Below are positions 337 to 24,695 of a DNA stretch of 64,000 nt, one piece after another. This DNA comes from Gammaproteobacteria bacterium. GTDB lineage: Bacteria; Pseudomonadota; Gammaproteobacteria; Eutrophobiales; Eutrophobiaceae. How positions within the stretch are numbered: position 1 is the stretch's first letter; each line of letters begins with the position of its first letter. The position numbers and the translations under genes were made by a program. The stretch spans positions 384,001 to 448,000 of the forward strand of contig OZ220696.1 of NCBI GenBank assembly GCA_965116495.1, read 5' to 3'. Below the pieces are notes generated by a model, which was not told the origin of the DNA, made no database searches, and was given only the letters and a program-made list of their open reading frames with translations.

Positions 337-1398
337 CTATGCACATATTTCATTGGTAGCAAGATTTTTCAACAAGCTGTCGTTATCTACGGCTCCTTCA
401 ATTTCACGCAGCCACCTGCGGTACTGGATGGATACCATATCAGTCGGGACGGAAATCTCGTTAATGTCGAATGGGATTTGCGGCGGGTTCTGTGCTTCGA
501 TCACCACAATATCTTCTTCCAGTACACGTTCCTGAAATGCCAGATGGGGATAATCGGGCTCATCCTTGTTGTGATCACGGCAGGTAAACCAGAAACTGCG
601 GCAATGACCCTCGTCAAGGGGTGATGCGCTCATCCATAAGATGGCCCGATTACCTTTCCCGGCTTTGCTGATGAGTTCAAATTCCAGGTTGACGGTAAAC
701 GGCATGGTAATCTGGTAGTTCGTTTTTCCCATCAAAGATACGTCCGGGATAGGCATATCATCAGTCTGGGGGTTGAAATGAAAAACCAATTGACCGTTAT
801 TACGTTCGATTGATGGGGGTGATACTTCCGTCATGTTCGGATCAAACAGTGTATTTGGATGCACGTAGGGAAAATGGGCTAAATCCACAAAGTTCTCCAG
901 GCGCCTGGCTGCGGAAGTTGGCCAGCTATAGGGTTTGCCGATAACTGCCTTGAACGCGTCGTCATCAAATCCGGGACAGGGAGGGATTTCTGTCTCTGCA
1001 TCGGTTTCAAGACGAACCCAGACGAGGTCGTATTTTACTTCAGCAGCATATTTTTGAATTTTTGCGCGGCCCGGTATTTTTAAATCCCGGCACGCAGGAA
1101 TATCGACACATTTTCCGCTACTGTCATAGGCCCAGCCATGATAGCGGCAACGTATTCTGCCGTCTTCTATGAATCCCCTGGACAAGGATGTTGAACGGTG
1201 CGCGCATCGGTCAGCGAAAGCGGAAACACTTCCGTCCAGTTTTGCTATAACCAGGGCCTCCCCCAGCAACTGCACCTGGAGCGGGCCATTACCGGAGGGG
1301 TCTGCCGAATACAATTCCTCCAAGGTACAGACAGGATGCCAGAAGTGACGCCAGGTCTCTTCTTTGATAAACCGGCCATTTGTTTTCGCTTTGGTCAT
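337..1398 (-). CDS. Rieske non-heme iron oxygenase alpha subunit (VanA/NdmA-like O- or N-demethylase type)
   Basis: Rieske motif CAHR...CRYHGW; iron motif ENFVDLAHFPYVH and VLEED. Confidence 0.85.
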   Translation of the reverse strand: MTKAKTNGRFIKEETWRHFWHPVCTLEELYSADPSGNGPLQVQLLGEALVIAKLDGSVSAFADRCAHRSTSLSRGFIEDGRIRCRYHGWAYDSSGKCVDIPACRDLKIPGRAKIQKYAAEVKYDLVWVRLETDAETEIPPCPGFDDDAFKAVIGKPYSWPTSAARRLENFVDLAHFPYVHPNTLFDPNMTEVSPPSIERNNGQLVFHFNPQTDDMPIPDVSLMGKTNYQITMPFTVNLEFELISKAGKGNRAILWMSASPLDEGHCRSFWFTCRDHNKDEPDYPHLAFQERVLEEDIVVIEAQNPPQIPFDINEISVPTDMVSIQYRRWLREIEGAVDNDSLLKNLATNEICA

Positions 1399-1496: not shown

Positions 1497-2354
1497 TCAG
1501 GTCACAGCGCTTGTGAGCGTATCCTCCAGAACGGTCAATCCCATCCCTGATAACATCGGCAGGTAGTAATTCCGGTGGATCTTGTTGACCTTCGGGGTTA
1601 AAGCGCCGCGCATCCCGAGCCACACCATCATTTCCACCGCTTCGGCGCCACCACGTTCCATCCATTCATCATGAGGGATATCGACCAGGCTTTCCGGATC
1701 GTCTTCGATCCGGTCAAGAAATTCTTCGTCCCAGTCCGAGTTCATATGGCCGAAACGATCGCCGTGCAACTGATGAGAAAGTCCACCGGTGCCCACAACA
1801 ACAACACGCGCATCATCGGGATAGGACTCTACGGCAGTGCGCAGTGCGTGTCCAAGTTTCCATAGCCGGTGCGGCGTCGGTAACGGATGCTGCAGCACGT
1901 TGACCTGGAAGGGCACGGTCCTGACGCTCCAGTCCGGCTCATGATCAAACAATAACGGCAATGGCACCAGGATGCCATGGTCCATCACCATGTCCTGGCA
2001 AATGGTGAGATCAAATTCACTCTCTACCACCAGCGAGTTGGCCAGGTGCCAGGAAAATACGGCATCACCTTTTACCGCCGGCAGCGGACGCGCGCCCCAG
2101 CCTTCATCACCGATAGGGTATTCATCGGCAACACCCATCGCGAACGTCGGGTACTTGTCGAAAAAGAAATCGGTGCCATGATCGTTGTACAGAACGATGG
2201 CGTGAGTTATACCGACGTCCTTTAACCAGGCTTTTGCAGGCTTATAACCGTCAAACAGGGGCTTCCACCCCGGCGTCTCCTGCTGGTTTTGATCGAAAGC
2301 CACGCCAATCGAAGGAACGTGGGACGAACCGATACCCGCAACTAGTCTACCCAT
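1497..2354 (-). CDS. ligB: Class III extradiol dioxygenase beta subunit (protocatechuate 4,5-/gallate dioxygenase-like)
   Basis: SSHVP, YNDH, DEGWG, DHG, GTGGLSHQ motifs; next to alpha subunit. Confidence 0.85.
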   Translation of the reverse strand: MGRLVAGIGSSHVPSIGVAFDQNQQETPGWKPLFDGYKPAKAWLKDVGITHAIVLYNDHGTDFFFDKYPTFAMGVADEYPIGDEGWGARPLPAVKGDAVFSWHLANSLVVESEFDLTICQDMVMDHGILVPLPLLFDHEPDWSVRTVPFQVNVLQHPLPTPHRLWKLGHALRTAVESYPDDARVVVVGTGGLSHQLHGDRFGHMNSDWDEEFLDRIEDDPESLVDIPHDEWMERGGAEAVEMMVWLGMRGALTPKVNKIHRNYYLPMLSGMGLTVLEDTLTSAVT

Positions 2355-2379: not shown

Positions 2380-2748
2380 CTACATATTTTGCCGCAATGG
2401 CACGTTGCGGGTTTTCATGAATTCTTCCACCGATTCGCCACGCTGCTGCGCACCGATGGGGACCAGGCCATCACCGGTCATGGCGCCGACTTTCAACAGC
2501 ATATAGATGTTGCCGCCGCCTTCTTCTATCAGTGCCTTCCAGTCCTTCTCTTTAACCTTTTGCTTCTCCCACGCGGAAAGACCGTAGTTGTTCATGTAGG
2601 CTTCCTCGTCTTTACGATAAGCCTCCCGGTTTTCGGCTTTGTGAAGAGAAAAGGCAAAACTGTTCAGCTTCAGCCCTTGCTGCGACCTTTGCCCGGTGAA
2701 CACACATGTGCCCGGGATATGATCACTGTGACCGGTTTCTCTACTCAT
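2380..2748 (-). CDS. ligA: Extradiol dioxygenase alpha subunit (LigA-like)
   Basis: IPGTCVF...LNSFAFSL..AENREAY..DEEAY...GGNIYMLLK. Confidence 0.85.
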   Translation of the reverse strand: MSRETGHSDHIPGTCVFTGQRSQQGLKLNSFAFSLHKAENREAYRKDEEAYMNNYGLSAWEKQKVKEKDWKALIEEGGGNIYMLLKVGAMTGDGLVPIGAQQRGESVEEFMKTRNVPLRQNM

Positions 2749-2854: not shown

Positions 2855-4039
2855 TCAGATCTCCGGCCAGTAATCGAACGGTAGCCCTGTATGTTGCCTG
2901 GCATAGGATATCTGGGAGGTCTCGTCAGACACCAGGTATTCCAGTTCCGCCACCTGCATACGTCGTTCGAAAGGATTGCTGTCGGGGTGGATATGATACT
3001 TGGCCGTGTTCCCGGAGGAAAAACGCTGGCACTGGAGGTTGCGCGCCAGGGCGACGGCGGCATAGCGGTCTAAAATCGTAGCATCGTCTTTTGTAAAGTA
3101 TTCGATCAGCGCGGTGGACAGGACACTCACATCGGCAAAGGCCGCGTTAAGACCCTTGGCGCCGGTCGGCGGGACGATGTGCGAGGCATCACCGCACAGA
3201 AACAAACGGCCATGGGACATGGGTTGGGAGAAAAAACTCCGCAACGGGGTCACGTCTTTCTGGAAGATCTCCCCTCGCACAAGCTCCCAACCGGGTGCGC
3301 CCAGACGCGTATCGAGTTCTTCCCAGATCCGCTCATCGGGCCATTCGTTGAGATCTTCATCCGGTGCGCACTGGAGATAGAGCCGCGATATTTTCGGTGA
3401 ACGCATGCTCAACAGTGCAAAGCCGCGTTCATGATGGCAAAACATCGCTACATCTTTCGACGGAGGCGCTTTGGCCATCACACCGAGCCAGCCGTAGGGA
3501 TAAACATTCTCGTACGTCTTGAGGACGCCGGCCGGGATCGAATGACGCGAAGGACCATGAAAACCATCGGCCCCGATAACGAAATCACAGCTTATTTCCT
3601 TATCCACGCCCTCGTGAGTGTATTTCACTGTCGGGGAATCGCCCTCGATGCCTTCGATTGCCGTGGCGGGCGCCTCATAGAAAACCTTGTGATCTTCCGC
3701 TGCCAGCGCACCCAACAGGTCCTTGGTAAGCTCTGACTGACCGTATATCGTGACGCCAACCCCTATCAGCTTGTCGAAATCGAGAAAGTGATGCTCATTA
3801 TGCAGGCCGATGACCACACCCGGATGATACATGCATTCCTTTTCCAGGCGTTCGCCGACACCTGCCTTGATCATCAGTTCTACCGCGTTCTTCTCCATGA
3901 CACCGGCGCGAATGCGACTTTCGACGTATTCACGGCTTTTCCTTTCCAGGACGACACTTTCGATCCCGCGCTGGCGTAATATCCAGGCCAGGAGCGAACC
4001 TGCCGGGCCGGCGCCCACTATCACGACTGGTACATGCAT
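2855..4039 (-). CDS. pobA: p-hydroxybenzoate 3-hydroxylase family flavin monooxygenase, divergent active site
   Basis: GAGPAG, RIRAGV, DGFHG, GDASHIVPPTGAKGLN; substrate-contact tyrosines appear substituted (see findings). Confidence 0.8.
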   Translation of the reverse strand: MHVPVVIVGAGPAGSLLAWILRQRGIESVVLERKSREYVESRIRAGVMEKNAVELMIKAGVGERLEKECMYHPGVVIGLHNEHHFLDFDKLIGVGVTIYGQSELTKDLLGALAAEDHKVFYEAPATAIEGIEGDSPTVKYTHEGVDKEISCDFVIGADGFHGPSRHSIPAGVLKTYENVYPYGWLGVMAKAPPSKDVAMFCHHERGFALLSMRSPKISRLYLQCAPDEDLNEWPDERIWEELDTRLGAPGWELVRGEIFQKDVTPLRSFFSQPMSHGRLFLCGDASHIVPPTGAKGLNAAFADVSVLSTALIEYFTKDDATILDRYAAVALARNLQCQRFSSGNTAKYHIHPDSNPFERRMQVAELEYLVSDETSQISYARQHTGLPFDYWPEI

Positions 4040-5073
4040 TGTCTTGTCTCCTGGTCCGGATTATATTCGTTTAAGCGGGCAAATACACTGCGGGCGTTGC
4101 CCTCAAAGATGGCCTTTTTCTCGTCTTTGTTCAGTGCATTGTTGTTATCGATGTAACGTTTGGTGTCGTCGAAATAATGGCCGGTTTCAGGGTCTATGCC
4201 GCGTACTGCACCTATCATTTCAGATGCAAACAGGATATTTTTGGAGGGGATTACATCCACCAGCAAATCAATCCCGGGCTGGTGATAAACACAGGTATCA
4301 AAGTAGACATTGTTCATCAACAATTCATCGAGCGGAGGCAGTCCCATCATGTCGGCCAGGCCGCGGAATCGCCCCCAGTGATAGGGTACTGCGCCGCCAC
4401 CATGGGGGATGATGAACCTGGTATCCGGGAAATCCCGGCACACAGTCGATGTCATTAACTGCATAAAGGCAGTAGTGTCGGCGCTCAGGTAGTAGGAACC
4501 GGTGGTCTGAAAGGCATGATTACAAGCCCCGCTCACATGGATCATGGCGGGGACATCCAGTTCGCACATTTTTTCGTATATCGGATACCAGTAGCGATCT
4601 CCCAGGGGAGGGGAGTCCCAGTGGCCGCCCGAAGGGTCCGGATTCAGGTTAAACCCGACAAAGCCGAACTCAAGCACACAACGCTCCAGTTCCAGAACGG
4701 CATTACTTAATCCTGCCCCCGGTGTCTGGGGTAACTGGCAACCTCCGGCGAAGTTATCCGGGTATAACTGCGTGATGCGATAGATTAACTCGTTACAGTG
4801 CTCAGACCAGAATTTACTGGTGCTCTCATTGCCGACATGATGCCCCATCCAGCTGGCGCGCGGCGAAAATATGGTGAGATCGATACCCCGGGTCCGTTGC
4901 AGTTTTAACTGTGCCCCTTCAAGACTCTCCCGCAACTGGTCATCACTGATATCAACGACCCCTTTTTCATGGTGAAAGTGTGGGTTATCGGCCAGTTCCG
5001 CTTTTTGTTGCTCGCGGTACTCGCCCAGCGCAGCCGGCGCCGTGGTGTAGTGCCCGTGGCAATCAATAACCAT
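4021..5073 (-). CDS. ligJ: 4-oxalomesaconate hydratase
   Basis: IDCHGHYTT, FSPRAS, IPHGGGAVPYHWGR, LFASEMIGAVRGIDP. Confidence 0.92.
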   Translation of the reverse strand: MVIDCHGHYTTAPAALGEYREQQKAELADNPHFHHEKGVVDISDDQLRESLEGAQLKLQRTRGIDLTIFSPRASWMGHHVGNESTSKFWSEHCNELIYRITQLYPDNFAGGCQLPQTPGAGLSNAVLELERCVLEFGFVGFNLNPDPSGGHWDSPPLGDRYWYPIYEKMCELDVPAMIHVSGACNHAFQTTGSYYLSADTTAFMQLMTSTVCRDFPDTRFIIPHGGGAVPYHWGRFRGLADMMGLPPLDELLMNNVYFDTCVYHQPGIDLLVDVIPSKNILFASEMIGAVRGIDPETGHYFDDTKRYIDNNNALNKDEKKAIFEGNARSVFARLNEYNPDQETRQCMYQS

Positions 5074-5075
5074 GC

Positions 5076-5804
5076 TCAGTCATTCAGATCGTCCAGTGAA
5101 TCCAGGTAAACCAGGCCGGCTTTTTCCAGGCGCGGGCGCATGTCATAAATATCCAGACCTAAAATGCCGTTCGCCAGTTGTTCACGCTTGCCCGTCTCGT
5201 TTTGTTCCCGGGTCCGGGCAGCAGTCATAACAGGCTCAGCCCAGTGTCTCGGAATCACTACCACGCCGTCATCATCCGCAACTACTACATCACCGGGATT
5301 GACGGCCTGGCCGGCACAGACAATGGGTACGTTTACCGAACCAGGCGTGTTTTTAACCGTGCCCCGGGCAGATACCGCTTTGGACCAAACGGGGAAACTC
5401 ATCTCTTCCAGTATCGCCACATCGCGTACGCCGGCATCTATCACAAGGCCTTTTACACCTCGTGCGCGGGCCGAAGTGGCCAATAAATCACCGAACATTC
5501 CGTCTGTATTGTCCGTGGTGCAGGCAACAACCAGGACATCTCCAGGCCGGCAAAGCTCGATAGCCACATGTAACATCCAGTTGTCGCCAGGCTGGGCCAA
5601 TACCGTAACGGCACTGCCTGCGATCCGGGCGTGTCGGTAAATCGGTCGAATATAAGGTTTTAACAACCCGACCCGTCCCAGCGCTTCATGTACCGTGGCG
5701 ACGCCCAGGGTTCCCAGCGCTTCCACGACCGCGGCATTTGCCCGTTCAATGTTTCGAACTGCTACCGTTCTCATCAGCTTACTTTCCTCATCTTGCGGGG
5801 ACAT
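5076..5804 (-). CDS. ligK: 4-carboxy-4-hydroxy-2-oxoadipate aldolase/oxaloacetate decarboxylase
   Basis: [29 protein letters not shown]; start may be MRTVAV (about 5774). Confidence 0.92.
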
Positions 5805-6861
5805 ACACTACACCCCTGCTCAGCAGGCGTGCAGTGCGCAGCAAACTCACTTTTTCAATTACCGGAAATTCTCCGGAATCATCCACTTGCAGAGCGACGG
5901 AAAACTCTCCGATAGGGTGTTCCACTGATATGGTTTTGACTTCGCCCCCAGGCCGTTCGACCATTCCCTCTACGACCGATCCGGGTAATATGCAAGCGGT
6001 AGCTGCCGACACTGCTCCCAGCACACCGACAGCCGCATGACATTTGTGAGGAATGAATGTTCGTGTGTTGACCAGCCCTCCATTTACCGCAGGCGATGCA
6101 AGGCACATCTTCGGGATGGTCTTGTTTTTCACATCATCCAGGTTCATACCGGGGCCGATTTGAAGTCGAATAGACTCCAGTCTCGCCTTTAAATCCTCAT
6201 TCGCGCTCAGTTCAAGCGGTGACTCATAGCCGCTGATGCCGAAATCAGTTGCCCGCAAAACCACTACAGGCATGCCATTGTCAACGCAGGTCATTTCCAC
6301 ACCGTCTACAATGTCCAGTACCCGGCCCGTGGGCAGGAGGTCTCCACAGATCGAGCCGGCCAGATCCTTATAAGAGCAAAGCACCGGTGCCCCACTGCCC
6401 GGCACGCCATCAATTTGAACTTCTCCCTCGTACTCCGTTTTACCGCCGGGCGTAGACAGTTCCAACTCGCTCAATCTTCCGCTGTTGACCAGGTGCACTG
6501 TAAGCCGGGTTGTCTCTTCATGTGCCGGCACCAGGCCGGCCTCTATGGCAAAGGGCCCGACGCCCGCCAGGATGTTTCCGCAATTTGGCGTGGTATCGAC
6601 CTTGTCCTGACCTACCACGACCTGTACGAACAGGAAGTCGATATCTGCGTCCGGCCGGGAAGAACGGCTCACGATAGCCACCTTGCTGGTAAGGGGATCG
6701 GCGCCGCCCAGGCCGTCTATCTGCCGTTCACCCCGGCCCATGGCATCCAGCAGCACTTCGTTGCGCTGTGCCGGGTCCGCGGGTAAATCTTCAGCAAGGA
6801 AATACAATCCTTTCGAACTCCCGCCGCGTATTTGCATATACGGAATCGCTGACTGTTTCAC
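5788..6861 (-). CDS. ligU: 4-oxalomesaconate tautomerase (PrpF family)
   Basis: [42 protein letters not shown]. Confidence 0.92.
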
Positions 6862-8367: not shown

Positions 8368-8432
8368 AGTGATGGGGTCAGGTCGCACATTGCACATGTA
8401 ATGTGTGCAATGTGCGACCTGACCCCATCACT
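8368..8432. repeat. REPIN-like hairpin doublet (family A)
   Basis: 29-bp perfect inverted repeat AGTGATGGGGTCAGGTCGCACATTGCACA, 7-nt loop, between convergent ligR and ligI. Confidence 0.9.
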
Positions 8433-8442
8433 TGCAATATCA

Positions 8443-9330
8443 TCAACTGGCTTCTTCCGGCCAATACAGGCGCATGGGGTTATCTACCAGCAGTTTTTGT
8501 TGCAGTTCTTCCGTGGGGGCAATACGGGGTATGTAGTCTACCAGTTTACCATCGTCCGGCATGTGAGACTTCATATTGGGGTGAGGCCAGTCGGTTCCCC
8601 ATAACACGCGGTCCGGGAAAGCGTCGATCACACGCCGGGCGAAGGGGATGACATCTTCGTATCCTGGCGGACCAACTGCTGAAATCCGTTCCGGGCAACT
8701 GACCTTCGACCAGAAATTCTCATTCTCAGCCAGCAGTTTGATAAAGAGATTGAACCCTGGGCCATCGACCGGTTGGCTGACATCAGGGCGGCCCATATGA
8801 TCCACCACCACCGTGGCAGGCAGGGATGTGAAGAAATTGTAATACTCTGCCAGGTCCGCTGCCTCAAAATAGATGACGATGTGCCAGCCCAAAGGTACGA
8901 TTCGCTCTGCGATGCCGGCCAGTTCGTCAATGGGCAAGCTGTCCACCAGGCGCTTTACGAAATTGAAGCGTGCGCCGCGTACACCGGCTGCATGCAATTG
9001 TGCCAATTCATCACCAGTTACAGTCGATCGCACCGTGGCGATACCCCGAGCCTTGCCGCGGGAGGATTGCAAGGCATCCGCCAGAGCACGATTGTCTGCG
9101 CCATGGCAGGTGGCCTGCACGATCACATTGCGGGAGAAACCAAGGTGATCACGCAATTGCCATAGTTTGTCCTTGCCTGCATCGCAAGGGGTGTACTTTC
9201 TCTCCGGTGCAAAAGGGAACTCTGCCGCGGGGCCAAATACGTGGCAGTGTGCATCCACGGCGCCATCAGGCACTACGAATCCAGGTGCGCCGGGCGCCGG
9301 GTGAAATGGCAACCAATCGGGATCCATCAT
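8443..9330 (-). CDS. ligI: 2-pyrone-4,6-dicarboxylate lactonase
   Basis: DAHCHVFGP, ERKYTPCDA, VQATCHG, WGTDWPHPNM. Confidence 0.92.
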   Translation of the reverse strand: MMDPDWLPFHPAPGAPGFVVPDGAVDAHCHVFGPAAEFPFAPERKYTPCDAGKDKLWQLRDHLGFSRNVIVQATCHGADNRALADALQSSRGKARGIATVRSTVTGDELAQLHAAGVRGARFNFVKRLVDSLPIDELAGIAERIVPLGWHIVIYFEAADLAEYYNFFTSLPATVVVDHMGRPDVSQPVDGPGFNLFIKLLAENENFWSKVSCPERISAVGPPGYEDVIPFARRVIDAFPDRVLWGTDWPHPNMKSHMPDDGKLVDYIPRIAPTEELQQKLLVDNPMRLYWPEEAS

Positions 9331-10157
9331 TTACCGGCCTTGCTTCCGTCAGTAGTTCCGGCGTTTTGAATCGAGGGAATAGCCGGCAAGCCCTCGGACA
9401 TGAGATTTTTCAGATTTTCCACTGTGGAATCAGTCATCAATGGCTCAATGCCCAGTTCCCGCAATAACACGGCAGACGCCTCCATTTCATGCAGGCGGCG
9501 CTTTGCGTGCACGTCGGAGCCCGTAACCAGGCGCTCCAGCAAGCGTTCATCAGCCTGTGTAATTTCTGTACTGATGTTTTGCCACAACCACTCGGACAAA
9601 CCCGCTTGTTCCGCACCGCGCAAGGCCTCAATAACCACAGCGGCCAGTCCTTTTGTAAATACACTGCGTAACAACTTGCGGGTGGCTGCGTCACCCGCCC
9701 TGGTTCCCAGAGATTCTACCGGCATGCCCAGGGGCAAAAAAGACTTTACAAACCGGTCAGCCCCCGTACCTGCTGCCAGTGCCCGGGTACGTATGCCCCT
9801 GCCCGGCACGATCTCCACCAGGGCAATGTCGGCAAAAGCGATACCGCGTTCGTCTGCTTTCTCAGCCAGTTGGCGTTTCAAGCCCGCAGAACCTGTAGAA
9901 AAATCGGCATAGAGTGCATTTTGGGGTATCTGCTCGAAGGACTGTGACAATGCTGTGGCAGCGTCCGAGGCCGCCGTTAACGCAAGGACCGCATCCACAC
10001 CGGCTACCGCCTCTCCCGGGTCTTCGAAACGGCTTACTCCAGCCGGCGTTATCACGGGTGCGGGATCGTAGGCTTGCACGGAAATACCGGCCGACAGCAG
10101 GTCTGAACTGATGATTGAGCCGGCTTCGCCCAGACCAAAAATGCACACGGTTTTCAT
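9327..10157 (-). CDS. NAD(P)-dependent oxidoreductase, beta-hydroxyacid dehydrogenase-like with DUF1932
   Basis: GLGEAG Rossmann motif, KLLRSVFTKGL, HAKRRLHEM; overlaps ligI start. Confidence 0.8.
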   Translation of the reverse strand: MKTVCIFGLGEAGSIISSDLLSAGISVQAYDPAPVITPAGVSRFEDPGEAVAGVDAVLALTAASDAATALSQSFEQIPQNALYADFSTGSAGLKRQLAEKADERGIAFADIALVEIVPGRGIRTRALAAGTGADRFVKSFLPLGMPVESLGTRAGDAATRKLLRSVFTKGLAAVVIEALRGAEQAGLSEWLWQNISTEITQADERLLERLVTGSDVHAKRRLHEMEASAVLLRELGIEPLMTDSTVENLKNLMSEGLPAIPSIQNAGTTDGSKAGK

Positions 10158-10219
10158 AAATCCTCCAAATTCACCGGAATTTAAAGACTAGGCAGTGCGC
10201 CAGCCCTGCTGTGCCTTCG

Positions 10220-10415
10220 TCAGGAACCCCAGGAATTCATAAGCGCCGCGCTATGGTAAACCGTACCAAACATTAAATGAATGTTCAGTAGTGCCGCCTC
10301 ATGCAGCTCTACCGCCGGAGAGCCAACACACTCTTCCGGAACAACAATATTATAACCACGCATAAAACCGTCCCTATGGTAGAGTCCACGCATACGTTAG
10401 TGGCCACACCCGCTG
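10220..10415 (-). pseudogene. 3' remnant of isochorismatase-family cysteine hydrolase, frameshifted
   Basis: Manual translation AGVATNVCVDSTI / 1-nt deletion / DGFMRGYNIVVPEECVGS...HEAALLNIHLMFGTV; 5' part absent. Confidence 0.75.
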
Positions 10416-10468
10416 ACCTGCCCCCTTGCTGTTTTCAATACATTCGTACGTAAGTTGATGCTATTTGG

Positions 10469-12451
10469 TTAACTCACCAGATCGTCCACTGCTCGTAGAC
10501 CTTCGTCGATGGCTGTGTTACAGAGTGCAACATAACTGGCGTCAGAATTAGCGATCGCAATTCTGCCAAATCGTTTACGGGCTATTTCGTGTGGCCGTTC
10601 TCCCTCTTCATAATCTGGATCAAATAGGGAGTTATACTGACGTGAGTAGCCATGTGGCCAACGGTTTACGGTAAGACCAATAACGTCTTCTCTAACATTA
10701 AAACTTGTTGAATCAAACAGGCTTGCCAACTGTTCCCTGACTTCAACTTCATAATCTTCAAATTCCATTGATAATAATTCTGTCTGTCCCTGACTATGTT
10801 GATCCTGAGGGTTAAGCCCGGAATGCGGATTAACCATCCCACCAATCATGTATATAATCACAGGCTCTTCTGCATTAAGACCCTGTTTATGGTCACCTAA
10901 CGAACGACCATAAGCCAGACATTCATGTAAAATCCGCCCAGGAAAATAAAAACTTCCAGAACCGAGTTCAAGAAGAGGTTTACCGCTACGTAGAAAAACA
11001 CCCACTGAAATGAAGGGCATTTTGACATTGGCTTTGAGAGCATGTTGTTGCTCTACAGGGAGTTCGGGACAAATATGCGGTAAATACATGTGCCATCCGG
11101 CATAGATGCAGTGTTTAGCTTTAACGCGATATGATTCATCTCCACGTACGTAGCTAACTGCTACTCGACTGCCTTTATCGACATTTTTGATACTGGTAAC
11201 TGTTGAATTTAGTCTGATACGAACGTTTGATTCCTCATCATCCAGCTTTGCATAATTCAATCGTGCAGTGGTTAACTCTTCCATAGTTTTTGCTTCAGTA
11301 ACCGCAGGCACCAATTGCCTCACAAGGTTTCTAGTAATAATTGCATTTCCATCAGGTCCGTAGTGACCTTCAAGCGGTGGCATACTGTCAATTTCTTCCT
11401 GGATTTTTCTTCCTTGATCTCCCATCACATGCAATCCAGGTAACCCTGCCCAATGAAATGCTTGGGAAAGTGGCGTGCACTCGGTGGTCAATCCGATCAA
11501 AGCAGATGACTGTCGGGTAAAAATATGATCGGCTGTGTCTTGTGACAAGCCGCAATACTTTGTAACAAAAGTATTGTAACTCATGGAATGAAGAGCAGAT
11601 TTGCGCTCAACTTCTGATAAATCTTCAAACACATCCCTCGTGGACGTGAGGAAGTCATGCAACTCCTTTTTTGCCGCCTCAGGAATTGGCATGTCAGGAA
11701 TATGCTTAACCAAGTTAAATTCGCCATCCTTATTTTTGCGATTCATTGGCTGGATATCGTCAGTCAATGTAACTGCCTTGCCATACTTTTCCTTATCGAA
11801 ACAAATTGAAGGATTTAGATCGAATGCACGTAAACGAAAATCTCCTACTTGTCCTGGCTCGAGACGCTCAAAACTCACACCTATGTCACGCAATAGTTTT
11901 TTTGACTGCTCACTAAAATAGGGAGTTTCCATCATCACACTACCGCCCGGTCCCATGTAGGTTTTCCCATCGTGCGTAAATTCGATACGCTTGGCATGGC
12001 CACCGAAATCATCATGGTTATCAATAATCAGAATCTTTACATTGGGGTCACTGGTTTTTTGTTGGTATGCATAAGCAGCCGTCAAGCCGCTAATACCACC
12101 TCCAACGACGATAAGATCATATTCCTCATTCAGGTCGATTGACTTGCCCCAAGTTTTTCCTGTCCATGCGTGGGCATGAGCGGACTCGAAAGAACCAACA
12201 TGACTACCTCTTAGACCTGTTTTTGCTGGGGGATAATAATCCGGATCTTTCTCAGGAGAATATGAAGGAAGCTGATTCGTAGTGGCAAAAGAAACTCTGG
12301 GAAGAGAACTACCATATGTGGCGAGTGCTGCAGTAGTCATACCTATACCATGTAGCAGATCACGACGGCTTATTAGGCGGTCAAGACCTAACTCTCTTGC
12401 CTTCTTATCGTACTTTTTATATTTCTGCATAGGATTTAGATTTTTTCTCAT
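10469..12451 (-). CDS. Spermidine dehydrogenase (SpdH)-like Tat-exported flavoprotein
   Basis: SRRDLL Tat motif, YYPPAKTGLRGSH, GGGISG, DNHDDFGGHAKR, NRWPHGY, GRIAIANSD; AT-rich; start may be 12430. Confidence 0.8.
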   Translation of the reverse strand: MRKNLNPMQKYKKYDKKARELGLDRLISRRDLLHGIGMTTAALATYGSSLPRVSFATTNQLPSYSPEKDPDYYPPAKTGLRGSHVGSFESAHAHAWTGKTWGKSIDLNEEYDLIVVGGGISGLTAAYAYQQKTSDPNVKILIIDNHDDFGGHAKRIEFTHDGKTYMGPGGSVMMETPYFSEQSKKLLRDIGVSFERLEPGQVGDFRLRAFDLNPSICFDKEKYGKAVTLTDDIQPMNRKNKDGEFNLVKHIPDMPIPEAAKKELHDFLTSTRDVFEDLSEVERKSALHSMSYNTFVTKYCGLSQDTADHIFTRQSSALIGLTTECTPLSQAFHWAGLPGLHVMGDQGRKIQEEIDSMPPLEGHYGPDGNAIITRNLVRQLVPAVTEAKTMEELTTARLNYAKLDDEESNVRIRLNSTVTSIKNVDKGSRVAVSYVRGDESYRVKAKHCIYAGWHMYLPHICPELPVEQQHALKANVKMPFISVGVFLRSGKPLLELGSGSFYFPGRILHECLAYGRSLGDHKQGLNAEEPVIIYMIGGMVNPHSGLNPQDQHSQGQTELLSMEFEDYEVEVREQLASLFDSTSFNVREDVIGLTVNRWPHGYSRQYNSLFDPDYEEGERPHEIARKRFGRIAIANSDASYVALCNTAIDEGLRAVDDLVS

Positions 12452-18500: not shown

Positions 18501-19370
18501 TCAGATTATAAAGATTCCTGCGTCAGTATTAACCTGGTCTGATGAGATGTCCGCGTCAGTGTCAGTATTAACTTGGTCCGATGAGGTATCCGCGTTGGTA
18601 TCCACTTCTACCACATCGATGTTTGCGAAGAAATCCATTGTACCGTCCCCGTCGATATCGAGATCGAAGGTGTCGGGGTTGGTATTGATGTCGTGGATAT
18701 CGGAAACGAGATCGGGTTCAATCCAGCGGTAATATTCGCTTTCTTCGGTAATGATGAGGCCGTTTTCATCATAAACGGGGGAACGGCCGGTGCCGTCGGC
18801 GTTTTCGCTGATAGGAGCTTCGCGAGTATAGTATCCTTCTGTATCCATCTCTCCATTTTGGTTTGTGTCAATCCACATTTTTATTTGATATTGCTTGTTT
18901 TCCTCCAGGCCTGAAAACCAGGTAACGCTTCCGAAGCGGTCAAAGCCTAATTCTATCAAGGTATCGCTGGGATTATTCAGGACAATCTCTTCATAGTTGA
19001 TATGTATTATTCGCTGCCACTCGCCAGGATTGCCATTTTCATCTAGTTCCCGGATTAGTAGGTAGGTCATATTAACCATCTCTTGTACATATATTGGCCA
19101 GGTTTGTTTAGAGATTGGCCCTTCAGTCGTTGGGTCAAAGTCGGTATGGTGTATGTCTGACTCTGGTTGCCCCTGCCCTTCGTACAACTGATAGAAATCA
19201 CCATCATCATGATCAAAGTCCATGTAGAGAGCGAAGCCGGTTTCATTGTTGATTACATCGAGGTGTATTGAGTATTTGCTGGTCAGTCCGAGGTCGTCCA
19301 GTGTATTGCTGCCGGTCTGTTCAAGGTCTAGTGTAAATTCGGCCATGTCTTGCATTGTGGTTTTCCTCAT
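18501..19370 (-). CDS. Highly acidic hypothetical protein with Dx[DN]xDG-like motifs
   Basis: 289 aa, D/E/T/N-rich, DTNQNGEMD, DIDGDGTMD, repeated SSDQVNTD. Confidence 0.7.
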   Translation of the reverse strand: MRKTTMQDMAEFTLDLEQTGSNTLDDLGLTSKYSIHLDVINNETGFALYMDFDHDDGDFYQLYEGQGQPESDIHHTDFDPTTEGPISKQTWPIYVQEMVNMTYLLIRELDENGNPGEWQRIIHINYEEIVLNNPSDTLIELGFDRFGSVTWFSGLEENKQYQIKMWIDTNQNGEMDTEGYYTREAPISENADGTGRSPVYDENGLIITEESEYYRWIEPDLVSDIHDINTNPDTFDLDIDGDGTMDFFANIDVVEVDTNADTSSDQVNTDTDADISSDQVNTDAGIFII

Positions 19371-19441
19371 TGAGAATTGGAGAAATCTAAATAACCTTAT
19401 CTAATGCCGGGAGAATAAGCAAATTTATAGGCTTAGTGCGG

Positions 19442-20467
19442 ATGGGGTCAGGTCGCACAATGCACATCGCCCGTAACAGGTTCCAGATTGGCCTGATCTA
19501 TTTGAAAAGCAGGTAGACTATTAGTAGGATTTCAACTAACCTCTGAATAAGTCAGCATTCCGTAACAGGGATTTTGTATAAATCAGCTTTCAAGGATGAA
19601 CTTATGGCAAGACCTCTCCGAATAGAATTTGCAGGAGCACTCTACCACATCACCTCCCGCGGTAACGCACGTGCTGATATATTTTCAGATGATTTTGACC
19701 GTTATCAATTTCTCAAGCTGCTGGGTGAAGCAGGCAAGCGGTTTGGTTGGTTGTGTCATGCGTACTGCTTAATGTCCAACCACTATCACTTGCTCATCGA
19801 AATCGGCCAGCCCGGATTGTCTAAGGGAATGCGCTTCCTCAACGGCGTTTATACGCAACGCTATAATAAACGACATGCCAGAGTAGGGCACTTGTTCCAG
19901 GGCCGGTTCAAAGGAATCCTGGTAGAGAGTGACGCCTATTTTTTAGAGCTGGTACGGTACATTGTTTTAAACCCCGTTCGAGCCCGGATGGTGAGACAGG
20001 CTCAAGAATGGCCTTGGAGCAGTTACCGGGCCACGGCAGGGCTGGCACGCCCCGAACCTTGTTTAACAATTGACAGGGTATTAGCCGAATTTTCGGAAAG
20101 GTGTGACAGTGCAAGAGCGAAGTATCAGGAGTTTGTTAACACCGATCAAAACCAACCCTCACCTTGGGAGAATCTCAAAAATCAAATTTACCTGGGCTCG
20201 GATTCCTTTGTGCAGGAAATGCTGAATCATATAGAACCGGATAAGGTTTCTAAGGATATCCCGAAGCCGCAAACGCTGGCTCCTCCTAAACCGCTTGACT
20301 ACTACGAATCAGCATTTACGACGCGTCAAAGCGCAATGTCTGCTGCCTATCGGTCAGGGCATTACACTATGGTTAAAGTGGCGGAGCATTTTGGAGTCAG
20401 CAGAACTACAGTGGGCCGAGCGTTGAAAGAATGAGCCTCAAGTGTGCATTGTGCGACCTGACCCCAT
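19442..20467. mobile_element. RAYT-like element with perfect 25-bp terminal inverted repeats
   Basis: ATGGGGTCAGGTCGCACAATGCACA at 19442-19466 and its reverse complement at 20443-20467 enclose the transposase. Confidence 0.9.
19604..20434 (+). CDS. HUH Y1 (REP-associated tyrosine-type) transposase with C-terminal HTH
   Basis: MARPLRI, YHITSRGN, HUH motif NHYHLL, GHLFQGRF, YIVLNPVRA, WSSY, HTH VAEHFGVSRTTVGRA. Confidence 0.92.
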   Translation: MARPLRIEFAGALYHITSRGNARADIFSDDFDRYQFLKLLGEAGKRFGWLCHAYCLMSNHYHLLIEIGQPGLSKGMRFLNGVYTQRYNKRHARVGHLFQGRFKGILVESDAYFLELVRYIVLNPVRARMVRQAQEWPWSSYRATAGLARPEPCLTIDRVLAEFSERCDSARAKYQEFVNTDQNQPSPWENLKNQIYLGSDSFVQEMLNHIEPDKVSKDIPKPQTLAPPKPLDYYESAFTTRQSAMSAAYRSGHYTMVKVAEHFGVSRTTVGRALKE

Positions 20468-20522: not shown

Positions 20523-20915
20523 CTATTGTGGCATGTAGTTAATTCTGAAGGGGTTTCCTTCCGGGTCTCTTAATACCGCTTGATACCAACCATAGTAGGT
20601 TTCAAACGGCGGTTTAAGCATTGTTCCACCCAGTTCAACTGCATAATTGCAACGAGCATCAACATCTTCCCGGCTTGATGCACCAAAGGTTATTAAGAGC
20701 GTGTCTGTTTGGGTATCTGGTTTAGTTAGTGACAAAAGCCCGTAGGCATCCAGGCTACTTATGCCGATACAACATGCGCCTGTTTCGAAGCCTCTGAAAT
20801 AATCTGAACGACTTGCCGTTATCTCTTCAAGATTAAATAGTGTTTGATAATACTCAGCAAGGGCAACCATGTTCTTTGCAAACACATTGACATAGAATAA
20901 TGGATATTTATTCAT
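20523..20915 (-). CDS. VOC/glyoxalase family protein
   Basis: AEYYQTLF, GGTMLKPPFETYYGWYQAVLRDPEGNPF; start MNKYP preferred. Confidence 0.85.
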   Translation of the reverse strand: MNKYPLFYVNVFAKNMVALAEYYQTLFNLEEITASRSDYFRGFETGACCIGISSLDAYGLLSLTKPDTQTDTLLITFGASSREDVDARCNYAVELGGTMLKPPFETYYGWYQAVLRDPEGNPFRINYMPQ

Positions 20916-20932
20916 TTTATTTCTTAATAGAG

Positions 20933-21916
20933 TCAAGCTGATTTTCCGTACGTTTTCTCATACATGTAAGCAACATGTTCCCCGGCAGTCGTCTCCGGGA
21001 AATCCAGCTCTCCGGATTCAGGCATGCAGGTAGGGACACATTTGACCTTGTAAAAATAATCAGGATCAAAGAAAGTGGGGCAGGAATAGCGGCTTTTGCC
21101 ACTCTGGTTATTAACGACACGGTGCATATTGGAGCGATATACACCATTGGTGAACACACGCATCATTTCGCCCAGATTGACGACAAACGTGCCTTCTATT
21201 GGAGGGGTTCTGATCCAGTCACCTGCGGAGTTTTGCACTTCCAATCCGCCAATATCGTCCTGCAAAAGCATGGTTAACATACCCCAGTCCGTGTGTGCCC
21301 CTGCCCCAAGTTGATTGGCAACAATTTCGGATTCCTGGGACGGATAATGCAGCAGACGGCCAACCATCACAGGTTCGGATAAGCCCTCGTCGAAATAAGC
21401 CTCGGTCAGATCCAGTGACAAGGCGAGTATCTTTGAAAGCGTTCTGCCCAGGTCCCGCATCAAATCAACATATTCATTAAATGAATCTTTAAAACCCTCT
21501 GGTTGTTCCGGCCATTGATTGGAACCCGTGTTGGGCACTCCTTGTTTCACATAAGGGTGGTTTTCATCCAGGTCATTACCGATAAGAAAGCCTTCTTTTA
21601 AATCGGGTGGCGAACCTTCGTCTAACGTCTGTGCCTTGATAGGTTCGTAGCCGCGAGTACAGGATGAGTTGTTGATATGAACTCTGTTCTTATCCGCTGC
21701 AGGCAAAGCGAAGAATAGTCTTGCCAGCTCAAGATGTTGCTCCATGCGCTCAACAGGAATGCCGTGGTTACTGATATAAAAGAATCCTGTTTCCCTGGAG
21801 GCTTTATGCACCTCCCATGCCACGGCTTTCTTCGCCTCTATATCACCGGAAAAATAAGGGGTAAGGTCAATAACCGGTATCCTGTCAGCGGCCTTTGCGG
21901 GGGTGTAAGTAATCAT
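20933..21916 (-). CDS. 2-oxoglutarate/Fe(II) oxygenase, isopenicillin N synthase-like
   Basis: IPVIDL, GFFYISNHG, HTDWG, HRVV, RYS. Confidence 0.92.
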   Translation of the reverse strand: MITYTPAKAADRIPVIDLTPYFSGDIEAKKAVAWEVHKASRETGFFYISNHGIPVERMEQHLELARLFFALPAADKNRVHINNSSCTRGYEPIKAQTLDEGSPPDLKEGFLIGNDLDENHPYVKQGVPNTGSNQWPEQPEGFKDSFNEYVDLMRDLGRTLSKILALSLDLTEAYFDEGLSEPVMVGRLLHYPSQESEIVANQLGAGAHTDWGMLTMLLQDDIGGLEVQNSAGDWIRTPPIEGTFVVNLGEMMRVFTNGVYRSNMHRVVNNQSGKSRYSCPTFFDPDYFYKVKCVPTCMPESGELDFPETTAGEHVAYMYEKTYGKSA

Positions 21917-22087
21917 AGAATGGGGTCAGGTCGCACAATGCACGTTGTAATCATAGAATGGGGTCAGGTCGCACAATACACGTTGTAGGTGAAGTGACGT
22001 TGTATTTTGGAATCAGCAGAACTGCAGCGGGCCGAACGTTGAAAGAATGAGCCTCAAGTGTGCATTGTGCGACCTGACCCCATTCTA
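21916..22087. mobile_element. Short deletion derivative of RAYT element with tandemly duplicated left end
   Basis: 28-bp inverted repeat TAGAATGGGGTCAGGTCGCACAATGCAC; 38-bp tandem duplication 21909-21984; interior matches the last codons of the transposase. Confidence 0.9.
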
Positions 22088-22091
22088 CATT

Positions 22092-23291
22092 CTACCCATT
22101 TAACTGGACTCTGAGTTCGCTTACTTCGCTGACAAACATATTGGTGTTTATCTTGAAGCTTTTTAACCGGGCATTGGAGTAGCTGCCTACCAGTTCTGCG
22201 ACGGCTTCCTGGGTCTCGATTAATGCTACATGCTGGCCGAGACAGGAGTATAGGCCGCCGCCGAAGTCCAGCAGATGGTGGACAACTTTCCGGGTCGGAT
22301 CGTAGCGTAACGGATCGTCGTAAACCCTCGGGTCGCGGTGGGCCGCGGGTATCAAGTGATGGACCGGTGTGCCTTCAGGGATCAGGACTCCACCATATTC
22401 CAGGTCTTCTGAAGCATAGCGCATCAGCGTATTGATACGGCCGGACAAACGGATAGTTTCATCGACAGCAGCAGGAATCAGCTCAGGATGATCAATGACT
22501 TGTTGCCAGCGTTGCCTGTCACTCGCAAGCCGGCCGATGACCGTGGCGATGCCATGGGCGGTATTGTCGGTACTGGCCTCGTTGAACATGGAGACAATGT
22601 GGAACAACTCCTGCTCACTGAAATGACCGGCCTGGTGCTGGGCAATGAAATTGGCGAGGAGATTTTCCTTCGGCGCTTCCATTGCATTGTCTATGAGGCT
22701 TTGGACATAGGGAAACAATTCATCGTAGGCGGCGATAATACCGGGGGTAAATTCAGGATTTCTGCTGAATATCTTCAGAAGCCGGTCAGACAGGTCGGCG
22801 ATCCAGGGGGCATCACTCAGCGGTGCGCCAAACCATAGACAAAACAGGCTGGATGGGACCGAAAAAGCAAAATCGTGCAGCAGATCGGTTTCTGTGTCCG
22901 GCTCTATGTTCTGCAGGAGGTCCTTGACCAGTTGCCGGATCATGGGGCGTTGTTCTTCGATAACCGAGGCGCCGATTGCCCGCGTCAATGCCTGGCGGAT
23001 ACGCGTGCGGTATGCATCCCGGCCGTGGCTTAATAACATGCATCTCTTGAATTCCTTTGCCGGTCCTTCAGGAAAGTTCATGGCCTCGACCAGGCCCATA
23101 TGATCTGAATGTAAGCGCCGATCCCTTAACAAGCCGACACATTCCTTATGTCCCAGCACTTCCAGCCCGCGGGCACTGCGGGCGAAGGGCCCCCGTTCGT
23201 GGGCCGACATGACAATAGCATCAAAATCGTCACTGGAGGCAAAGGCTGCGGTGATATCAATGGTGGGGAGTTGGTCGATGGTGAGTGTCAT
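22092..23291 (-). CDS. Cytochrome P450
   Basis: ETIR (ExxR), HRDP, FGGGLYSCLG; I-helix EASTDNT. Confidence 0.92.
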   Translation of the reverse strand: MTLTIDQLPTIDITAAFASSDDFDAIVMSAHERGPFARSARGLEVLGHKECVGLLRDRRLHSDHMGLVEAMNFPEGPAKEFKRCMLLSHGRDAYRTRIRQALTRAIGASVIEEQRPMIRQLVKDLLQNIEPDTETDLLHDFAFSVPSSLFCLWFGAPLSDAPWIADLSDRLLKIFSRNPEFTPGIIAAYDELFPYVQSLIDNAMEAPKENLLANFIAQHQAGHFSEQELFHIVSMFNEASTDNTAHGIATVIGRLASDRQRWQQVIDHPELIPAAVDETIRLSGRINTLMRYASEDLEYGGVLIPEGTPVHHLIPAAHRDPRVYDDPLRYDPTRKVVHHLLDFGGGLYSCLGQHVALIETQEAVAELVGSYSNARLKSFKINTNMFVSEVSELRVQLNG

Positions 23292-23498: not shown

Positions 23499-24695
23499 TT
23501 AGCTGCTCGATTCCCGGATCATCTTGCGTAGCATGCGTACGCCGACGAGCTTGATCATCAGACTTTTAAAAAGGGAAGGCGGGGCCGTGTTGGCTGCGGA
23601 AACATACTGGTTGATGCCTAGTTGCTCGCGCAGGTCCTCGGACATGGCCTGCATGGGGCCGTCGGACGGGATGCCGGTCGCATCGGCGATACGCACCATG
23701 CGCTGGAAGTTCGAAATGACCCCGGCCGCATCGACCATCGCTGCGGACCCCATCTTGTCCACCAGGGCCTGACGCGTCGACTCCAGCGCAGCGCCTTCAA
23801 CTCCCATGCAGGCGTTGGTGTACTGCAGCAGTTCGCGGGAATCAGGTATTCCCCTGATCTCGGTGCAGGACGGATCAGTGAGGCCGTCGAAGTCGATGGA
23901 CCCGCCTGTCAGTTCGACGCTCTCACGGAGCATCACCACATGTGAGGCAGTTCAGTAGAAACAGCCGTTGAGTGCGGACACCCGGGCGGCCACTACCTCG
24001 GTCTGGGGGCGGGACAGGGTTCCCTGGGGGGACTTGGTTACATTCCACACCTCGTCAACCTTCAGGTAATGCGCTATGGAAGTATCAAGCAGGGTGCGCA
24101 CCTCGTCGGGGACCAGGCTCAGCGCCCGGATGACGTAGCCGCGCATGTCGCCTTCCCACAGGTCCGCGTCAGGCCCGGAATCTACCCGCATCGGGAGTAT
24201 CGGGACCCAGGCCCGGTCGTAGGCAGCATTGTCGGGACGGTAACGGCTAGGCTCGCCCGGTTGCGGTTCCGGCAGTTCATTCAGGGGCAGGCCGAGGCAG
24301 CGGCAGAATTCGTCTATGGAGAACACCGCGACCTGGGTGCCGATAATTTCAACGTACTGTTCTACGCTGAGACCCTGCTGCATGATCCCGTCAAACCAGC
24401 TTTTCGTGAGCCGCGCCGAATCGGTGGTCACGCGGTGGATGACTTCGACCACCACATCGGGAAGATCGCTGACTGTGTCATGGGCCCCGTCAACCGTGTA
24501 TGGAGATAACGCTTCCTTGCGCCGGCGACAGAGATTGCATTGCTGTGAGTGGCGGATTTCCCTGGCTATGTCGACCCGTTCAGCACCCGTGAACCAATTA
24601 CCCGGAGCAGCCAGGCGCTGCCAGTAACGGTTATGGCTTGCAGCGAAATTCTCGCGCACCGGCCAGGGAGCATTGCTGTAGTCAATCACACTCAT
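23499..24695 (-). CDS. AhpD/alkylhydroperoxidase-like selenoprotein (about 398 aa, Sec at UGA 23952-23954)
   Basis: ORFs 23952-24695 and 23499-23939 are in frame across one TGA: VSALNGCFY-U-TASH (CxxU..H); hairpin downstream. Confidence 0.8.
23902..23950 (-). promoter_or_regulatory. Candidate bacterial SECIS element
   Basis: Directly 3' of UGA: lower stem CUGCCU/AGGCGG, upper stem GAUGCUC/GAGCGUC, apical loop CGUGA. Confidence 0.6.

Follow-up and report, generated by a model that had tools for sequence, protein, structure and literature searches.

The window, meaning the whole 64,000-nucleotide stretch of DNA analysed, carries a minus-strand run of genes in the order ligU-ligK-ligJ-pobA-ligA-ligB-Rieske oxygenase and then a divergent LysR regulator gene, ligI and a gene for a DUF1932 oxidoreductase (Table 1). 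The pobA gene of this run, referred to below as the variant pobA, encodes a flavin hydroxylase of the PHBH family. The divergent LysR protein is presumably LigR/GalR-like. The accompanying LigB is a beta subunit split from its alpha subunit; it does not reach the cut-off of the NF009904 gallate dioxygenase equivalog (343 vs 412 bits), and its nearest solved relative is the gallate dioxygenase DesB. Residue F103 of LigA is described as gating and limiting C5 substituents (PMC10094722). This position is occupied by Leu in all 26 rows of the LigA type that accompanies the variant pobA, and since LigA proteins linked to LigC have Met at 103 and likewise lack the Phe, Leu103 is not diagnostic. Contigs, most of them 90-99% alike, from four RNA runs of a single study extend over portions of most genes of the locus and bridge ligB-ligA-pobA, pobA-ligJ and ligJ-ligK, with the limit that contigs cannot show transcription. 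A promoter and terminator scan of the locus returned matches at chance level.

Table 1. Features of the variant pobA locus, with positions given in the window and residues in PHBH numbering.
Feature	Position	Strand	Remarks
pobA (variant), PHBH-family FAD monooxygenase, 394 aa	2855..4039	(-)	A199/F201/H385/N346/Y381 pocket
Codon for Ala199	3446..3448	(-)	Leu in PHBH, Val in XaPobA
Codon for Phe201	3440..3442	(-)	Tyr in PHBH, Trp in XaPobA
Codon for His385	2891..2893	(-)	Tyr in PHBH, Phe in XaPobA
Codon for Asn346	3008..3010	(-)	Clade-fixed; Met in 17/17 outsiders
Codon for Tyr381	2903..2905	(-)	Clade-fixed; Leu in 17/17 outsiders
ligA, extradiol dioxygenase alpha subunit	2380..2748	(-)	Leu at the LigA F103 position
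ligB, extradiol dioxygenase beta subunit	1497..2354	(-)	Passes NF009902 (PRK13365 subfamily), not the gallate dioxygenase equivalog
Rieske oxygenase	337..1398	(-)	Nearest solved relatives NdmB/NdmA demethylases; orthologue adjoins ligB in 11/11 genus carriers
ligJ, 4-oxalomesaconate hydratase	4021..5073	(-)	19 nt overlap with the pobA start
ligK, 4-carboxy-4-hydroxy-2-oxoadipate aldolase	5076..5804	(-)	TIGR02798 over cut-off
ligU, 4-oxalomesaconate tautomerase	5788..6861	(-)	NF033377 over cut-off
Divergent LysR regulator, 432 aa	7068..8366	(+)	Two matched stretches
ligI, 2-pyrone-4,6-dicarboxylate (PDC) hydrolase	8443..9330	(-)	4D8L, E 1e-106
NAD_binding_2 and DUF1932 oxidoreductase	9327..10157	(-)	Not LigC

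Two related perfect hairpins lie in the ligB/Rieske gap (1415-1469) and the lysR/ligI gap (8368-8432), with arms of 24 and 29 bp; about 100 exact copies of the arm occur in the genome, as in a REP-like dispersed repeat. Elsewhere in the window (20523-23291) a small unassigned ORF is clustered with genes for a cytochrome P450 and a 2OG-Fe(II) oxygenase, and the same trio is found near the variant pobA in the metagenome loci L025 and L033. An IS200-like transposase adjoins an acidic 289 aa ORF without a Pfam match, and downstream of a TonB receptor a pair of neighbouring ORFs likewise has none (18501-20434 and 23499-24695). The ORF families F24 and F39 seem by eye to be antisense frames of neighbouring genes. 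The genome G000 encodes 19 further Rieske-type matches to the Rieske protein of the window, several of them in tandem.

Among flavin hydroxylases PHBH serves as the model enzyme, with a tyrosine relay that is textbook knowledge. The variant PobA is a member of the PobA/PHBH family (group A flavoprotein monooxygenases). The FAD motifs GxGxxG, DG and GD and the carboxylate triad S212/R214/Y222 are all intact, the broad NF006091 model is passed (498 bits vs a cut-off of 351), and the AlphaFold model (pLDDT 92.1) adopts the PHBH fold with TM scores of 0.95-0.96 to PHBH, PraI and XaPobA. The best sequence matches in the PDB are XaPobA (8JQQ/8JQO, 379-382 bits), followed by PraI and Pseudomonas PHBH (about 355 bits). 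The protein falls under the TIGR02360 equivalog cut-off (455.6 vs 538.7 bits), which the Y201/Y385 paralogues of the genus exceed. In PHBH numbering it carries A199, F201, L210, S212, R214, R220, Y222, P293, T294, N346, T347, Y381 and H385; H72, V47 and W185 are retained from PHBH and V75 is present. The HMMER alignment with P. fluorescens PHBH (1PBB) is gap-free over the 199-222 and 293-385 regions and, together with the mapped codons and a control of the register, bears out the exchanges L199A, Y201F and Y385H that a sequence-only reading of the gene had proposed, as well as its claim that S212/R214/Y222 and P293/T294 are conserved. Alignment and structure models both place Phe and not Tyr at 201 and His and not Tyr at 385.

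Because the HMMER alignment with XaPobA came out register-shifted, the register was checked in three ways. Between the anchors PP and RGF the variant PobA, PHBH and XaPobA have equally long segments; in P0101, the closest canonical relative, L198/Y200 carry the sequence numbers that A198/F200 have in the variant; and the AlphaFold models of these two proteins share an identical strand 198-201 and an identical last helix 373-384. A shifted register as the cause of the residue changes is thereby ruled out. Pseudogene formation or drift is ruled out by the fixation of the changes across the clade and by an excess of synonymous over non-synonymous codon differences, which holds for the variant pobA against 11/11 genome loci. 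The residue changes are neither chance nor decay. Residues 32-42 match a described NADPH motif except at position 40 (PMC6315137), and position 33 is variable across most of the clade.

The distribution of the pocket was followed in the best 120 of 7294 protein matches plus the query, which were split by identity and not by feature into 104 rows of at least 55% identity and 17 rows below it. Within this sample A199 and F201 are present in 104/104 rows of the upper group, H385 in 99/99 of those that cover the position, Y381 in 100/100 and N346 in 100/101; the carboxylate triad is retained throughout with a single S212N, and H72 is kept in 92/102. All 17 rows below 55% identity read L199/Y201/M346/L381/Y385. 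In a quick tree of 67 rows, none of them from clade F (see below), 22 clade rows are placed on one branch with an SH-aLRT of 100, and the pocket residues are identical in every subclade. Named members include Tropicibacter, Shimia, Amphritea, Rhizobiaceae, Rhodospirillaceae/Rhodospirillales, Planctomycetaceae, Chloroflexota and gammaproteobacterial MAGs, and Tara records also occur; these names and records point to a marine bias of a clade in which most records are unnamed. Plasmids yielded no clade member, as none of 286 records reaches 60% identity, and only one additional carrier was found among 80 relatives of the alphaproteobacterial genome G041. The A/F/H combination at 199/201/385 is absent from 93 proteins aligned over at least 330 positions, taken from 150 listed representatives of 50% clusters, a set in which the clade has no separate representative and which says little on rarity. 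Other uncharacterised PobA lineages that lack both tyrosines (P0147, P0190, P0214, P0231, P0241 and P0247) show for example L/F/M or R/F/M at these positions.

Natural PobA proteins without the tyrosines are already known from clade F, which the sequence-only reading had passed over. The characterised protocatechuate 5-hydroxylases XaPobA, OtPobA and PkPobA (8JQO/8JQP/8JQQ) have the same fold as the variant PobA (TM 0.96, 46% identity), likewise replace both tyrosines while keeping S212/R214/Y222/P293, and perform naturally the 5-hydroxylation of a 3-substituted 4-hydroxybenzoate that is proposed below for the variant (PMC10770758). In clade F, however, the pocket reads V/I199, W201, M210 and F385 (with C347 in XaPobA), whereas the variant clade has A199, F201, L210, T347 and H385 with N346 and Y381 throughout. 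Membership in clade F is rejected on the residues at 199, 201, 210, 385 and 347; among the matches listed the variant is 46% identical to XaPobA as against 50-52% to the nearest L/Y/Y proteins. Clade F taxa are mostly Burkholderiales, unlike the named members of the variant clade. The variant clade is a second natural design without the tyrosine relay, with a different pocket. Canonical PobA (EC 1.14.13.2; 1PBE/1PBB) shares with it the fold, the FAD motifs, the carboxylate triad, P293/T294, H72, V47 and W185; it differs in having the Y201/Y385 relay and L199 and in exceeding the TIGR02360 cut-off, and the source genome of the variant lacks LigC and PcaHG.

A further parallel is provided by Pigmentiphaga kullae H8, which degrades 3-bromo-4-hydroxybenzoate via 3-bromo-4,5-dihydroxybenzoate with the gene sets phbh1-pcaA-pcaB and pcaA2-pcaB2-phbh2 (PMC12016517). 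These bhb1 and bhb2 operons combine a PobA homologue with a LigAB pair (PcaAB), and hydroxylation precedes ring cleavage (PMC12016517). Both gene orders recur in the variant clade. Primer-derived tags of PHBH1 and PHBH2, which are short, match XaPobA (YPQHE, and Met210 in PHBH2) and are found in none of the first 100 listed homologues of the variant. The N-terminal primer tags of the H8 pcaB genes match the subfamily of the accompanying LigB and further tags occur in relatives at 61-68% identity, in each case as tags and not full sequences. Judged by these tags the H8 hydroxylases look clade-F-like and not orthologous to the variant, so that the operon match would be an analogy. By its residues and these tags the variant PobA belongs neither to clade F nor with the H8 enzymes, though it would act in a similar way. 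With the lig/pmd protocatechuate 4,5-cleavage pathway and the 3-O-methylgallate branch of sphingomonads the locus has homologues of LigAB, LigI, LigU, LigJ and LigK in common (PMC8091115). In that branch PDC can form from a 5-substituted substrate without LigC (PMC8091115); the present locus differs from the lig/pmd pathway in the missing LigC, in a LigB of another subfamily and in the hydroxylase as entry.

The variant pobA is present in 11 of 23 genomes of the genus; these genomes are kin and not independent, so that the carrier counts are descriptive. A ligA-ligB pair follows it in 11/11 genome loci, the accompanying LigB and the Rieske orthologue occur in exactly the same 11/23 genomes, and all 11 carriers have LigI. 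LigC, however, is found in only one of them, as against 5/5 of the non-carriers that have LigI (the LigC query was confirmed as PmdC). The one exception, G005, has a short pobA-ligAB-Rieske module (L008) and, apart from it, ligAB-ligJ-ligI-ligC in a canonical cluster, as well as a Y201/Y385 PobA, a paralogue that is missing from 9/11 carriers. In the source genome, which is a single contig and 99.5% complete, a second PobA and LigC are absent and PcaH gives no match over cut-off; the best LigC match is 28% identical over part of the query. The LigB proteins that adjoin the variant pobA form two lineages of one subfamily, both separate from LigC-linked LigB, and are 49% identical to the LigC-linked LigB of sister genomes. 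LigB of the cultured species Pseudomaricurvus alkylphenolicus (P0304) falls within this LigB clade. In G001 the 3' part of ligB is duplicated (L007:10880-11296).

In the Alphaproteobacteria G041 and G043 the order is ligK-ligU-ligI-pobA-ligA-ligB, and the clusters also hold an aldehyde dehydrogenase, a CalA-like dehydrogenase, a TRAP transporter and what is presumably a GalB-like gene. Searches of both genomes gave no LigC match above 35% identity. G041 has no Rieske orthologue; its ligU and ligB are each split across two frames (L011:4834-5894 and 9719-10549), by decay or assembly error. Both genomes encode a canonical pobA next to pcaHG, apart from the variant cluster, and 4-hydroxybenzoate and protocatechuate are therefore already covered. 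A clade-specific DNA pattern recovered 29 metagenome loci, of which 25 are true and four (L019, L031, L038 and L046) are other genes and were dropped. In 19 of the 25 a ligB lies near the variant pobA, in the order pobA-ligA-ligB or ligA-ligB-pobA; three loci (L034, L040 and L043) end close to pobA, and in L023, L026 and L044 UbiD-family genes take the place of ligAB; in L044 the 9 kb to each side of pobA contain no ligAB. At these three loci (L044:2832-10074, L023 and L026) the pocket is the same; as many as three UbiD-family genes stand opposite pobA, which itself comes after a gene for a thiamine-diphosphate enzyme. Upstream dehydrogenases for alcohols and aldehydes, and also a VAO-family oxidase, are repeatedly encoded near the variant pobA. 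One locus, L045, is a counter-example in that LigC lies inside the pobA cluster.

From the fold, the residues, the clade, the gene order and the co-occurrence described above a likely substrate class can be inferred. It is proposed that the variant PobA probably hydroxylates C5 of a 4-hydroxybenzoate that bears a leaving group at C3, whereupon LigAB cleavage would give PDC without LigC. The 4,5-cleavage of protocatechuate itself yields a semialdehyde that requires LigC. Cleavage of 3-O-methylgallate produces an ester that closes to PDC non-enzymatically, and gallate gives OMA with need for neither LigC nor LigI (PMC8091115). The presence of LigI without LigC therefore indicates a 5-methoxy or 5-halo ring-cleavage substrate. 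A 5-halo substrate would give an acyl halide, which would be expected to close to PDC like the ester. S212/R214/Y222 would hold the substrate carboxylate as in PHBH, and A199 with V75, F201 and H72 would widen the subsite that houses the 3-substituent in XaPobA, where residues 72, 75, 199 and 201 surround it (PMC10770758); the side chains at 75, 199 and 201 are smaller in the variant than in XaPobA. With the tyrosine relay absent, the substrate would have to ionise by itself, as a halophenol does more readily, or with possible aid from H385, N346 and Y381. The accompanying LigAB would open the ring of the 5-substituted protocatechuate at the C4-C5 bond, the resulting acyl halide or ester would close to PDC, and LigI, LigU, LigJ and LigK would convert PDC to pyruvate and oxaloacetate. 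Demethylation of methoxylated precursors may be the part played by the NdmA/B-like Rieske enzyme. Counted against this proposal is that the retention of LigI could also be explained by 3-O-methylgallate derived from the Rieske enzyme, or by linkage alone.

A protocatechuate 5-hydroxylase that arose apart from clade F, perhaps leading from 4-hydroxybenzoate to gallate by two hydroxylations and on to OMA through LigAB, is judged unlikely. It too would explain the missing LigC, and it fits XaPobA as the top sequence and structure match, DesB as the nearest solved LigB relative and a source genome with no other PobA and no PcaH over cut-off; the lack of the Y201/Y385 paralogue in most genus carriers resembles a replacement. 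The background on which the sequence-only reading had based protocatechuate as an example, namely activation by Tyr201/Tyr385 and the formation of gallate by Y385F PHBH with or without L199V, agrees with the literature (PMC3546652; PMC10770758). In XaPobA, however, V199A abolishes activity on protocatechuate, M210L leaves 42% and C347T lowers kcat 20-fold (PMC10770758), so that each of the states A199, L210 and T347 is adverse there, although effects in an enzyme only 46% identical may not transfer to the variant. Moreover, LigI is retained in all genus carriers even though gallate cleavage leads to OMA, the accompanying LigB stays under the gallate dioxygenase cut-off, and PcaHG of G041 and G043 already cleaves protocatechuate. 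The suggestion of protocatechuate to gallate is thus weakened, while the broader claim of a natural enzyme for a different benzoate gains from the fixed clade signature and the gene context.

The readings beyond a leaving group and protocatechuate are quite unlikely even when taken jointly. An aminobenzoate hydroxylase, acting on 4-aminobenzoate or on a methylamino precursor unmasked by the NdmA/B-like Rieske enzyme, would not need the proton relay: Y201F raised 4-aminobenzoate hydroxylation in CvPHBH (PMC10466732), 4-aminobenzoate hydroxylation is pH-independent (PMC3546652), and the nearest solved relatives of the Rieske protein are N-demethylases. It is nevertheless improbable. The amino option of the sequence-only reading is compatible with the active site but not with the downstream genes, as by pathway logic the cleavage of an aminophenol would not feed the PDC/OMA enzymes; in addition A199 is left unexplained and G041 lacks the Rieske orthologue. 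An ordinary 4-hydroxybenzoate 3-hydroxylase with a proton relay rebuilt by H385, N346 and Y381 would suit the sole PobA homologue of the source genome, the retention of H72 in most of the clade rows sampled and the passing of NF006091. This is more doubtful still, given that Y201F in the Tyr201/Tyr385 network of PHBH leaves the phenol unactivated and slows hydroxylation about a thousandfold (PMC3546652), that TIGR02360 is failed, that protocatechuate cleaved at 4,5 needs the LigC missing from 10/11 genus carriers and that G041 and G043 have a canonical PobA as well. Least probable of all is another 3-substituent (sulfo, nitro or alkyl) or a substrate that varies among subclades. The three UbiD-associated loci, with no ligAB partner, would agree with this, as would a PHBH variant solved with 4-hydroxy-3-methylbenzoate (8Y2S, from its title); against it stand the uniform pocket of all subclades and, on chemical grounds, an alkyl-bearing ring that would yield neither PDC nor OMA.

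Within the preferred reading of a C3 leaving group, the halogen version is tentatively favoured, with a 3-bromo substituent foremost and ipso attack on a 3,5-dibromo substrate included. A halogenated substrate was omitted from the sequence-only reading and is judged the best fit here. Bromine is favoured over methoxy because the phenol is no longer activated in the absence of the Tyr relay and a halophenol, being more acidic, ionises more easily. The availability of the compounds in the sea does not separate the two, because both 3-bromo-4-hydroxybenzoic acid from a marine alga and vanillic acid from seawater have been reported (PMC7601137). Counted against the halogen version is that the text of the Pigmentiphaga H8 paper, as far as it was available, makes no mention of PDC (PMC12016517); closure of the acyl halide to PDC would be expected on chemical grounds. 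Reductive dehalogenases gave no match in 23 genus genomes, and control genomes gave none either; in G041 and G043 only weak partial matches common to non-carriers were seen. A halogenase search yielded short N-terminal matches only, a motif scan yielded nothing, and no halogen-specific gene tracking with the variant pobA was found in the genomes searched.

The methoxy version, which survives from the substrates first suggested, is placed second and is somewhat unlikely. As a vanillate 5-hydroxylase working alongside a Rieske demethylase for syringate, the variant PobA might channel acids of the guaiacyl and syringyl types into 3-O-methylgallate and PDC with neither O-demethylation nor LigC, His385 replacing the tyrosine relay. 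In the literature searched, which left most subscription journals outside its scope, there was no description of a natural vanillate 5-hydroxylase, of a His385 PobA pocket or of the pocket of this clade with 3-substituted substrates, and the available parts of the XaPobA text and supplement list no halo or methoxy substrates (PMC10770758).

If the bromo substrates are true, bacteria could mineralise naturally occurring bromophenolic acids with no need for a specialised dehalogenase; if vanillate is true, the variant would open a new way into the breakdown of lignin acids and could readily serve as a catalyst for making 3-O-methylgallate and PDC. The analysis contributes the pattern of LigI without LigC, the coexistence with canonical routes, the control of the register and the exceptions to a constant LigAB adjacency. 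Pathway reconstructions of carrier genomes are probably wrong, because the databases label the clade proteins plain 4-hydroxybenzoate 3-monooxygenase. The substrate question is cheap to test because cultured carriers exist, such as Tropicibacter sp. Alg240-R139 (WP_164660220.1).

A second PobA type of the genus (L012:9555-10724 and L013-L016, in G002, G005, G006, G018 and G004) keeps Y201/Y385 and has S75, F/L47 and a gap at 199. It is solitary among housekeeping-like genes, outside catabolic clusters, and G018 and G020 have a match to it without LigC. A second, distant LigAB-type pair, at L018:7373-15475 and L051:7026-12317, has a VdcC-like decarboxylase, a sulfatase and a TonB receptor as its neighbours, and farther off lies a VAO-family oxidase cluster whose VdcC member exceeds the cut-off.
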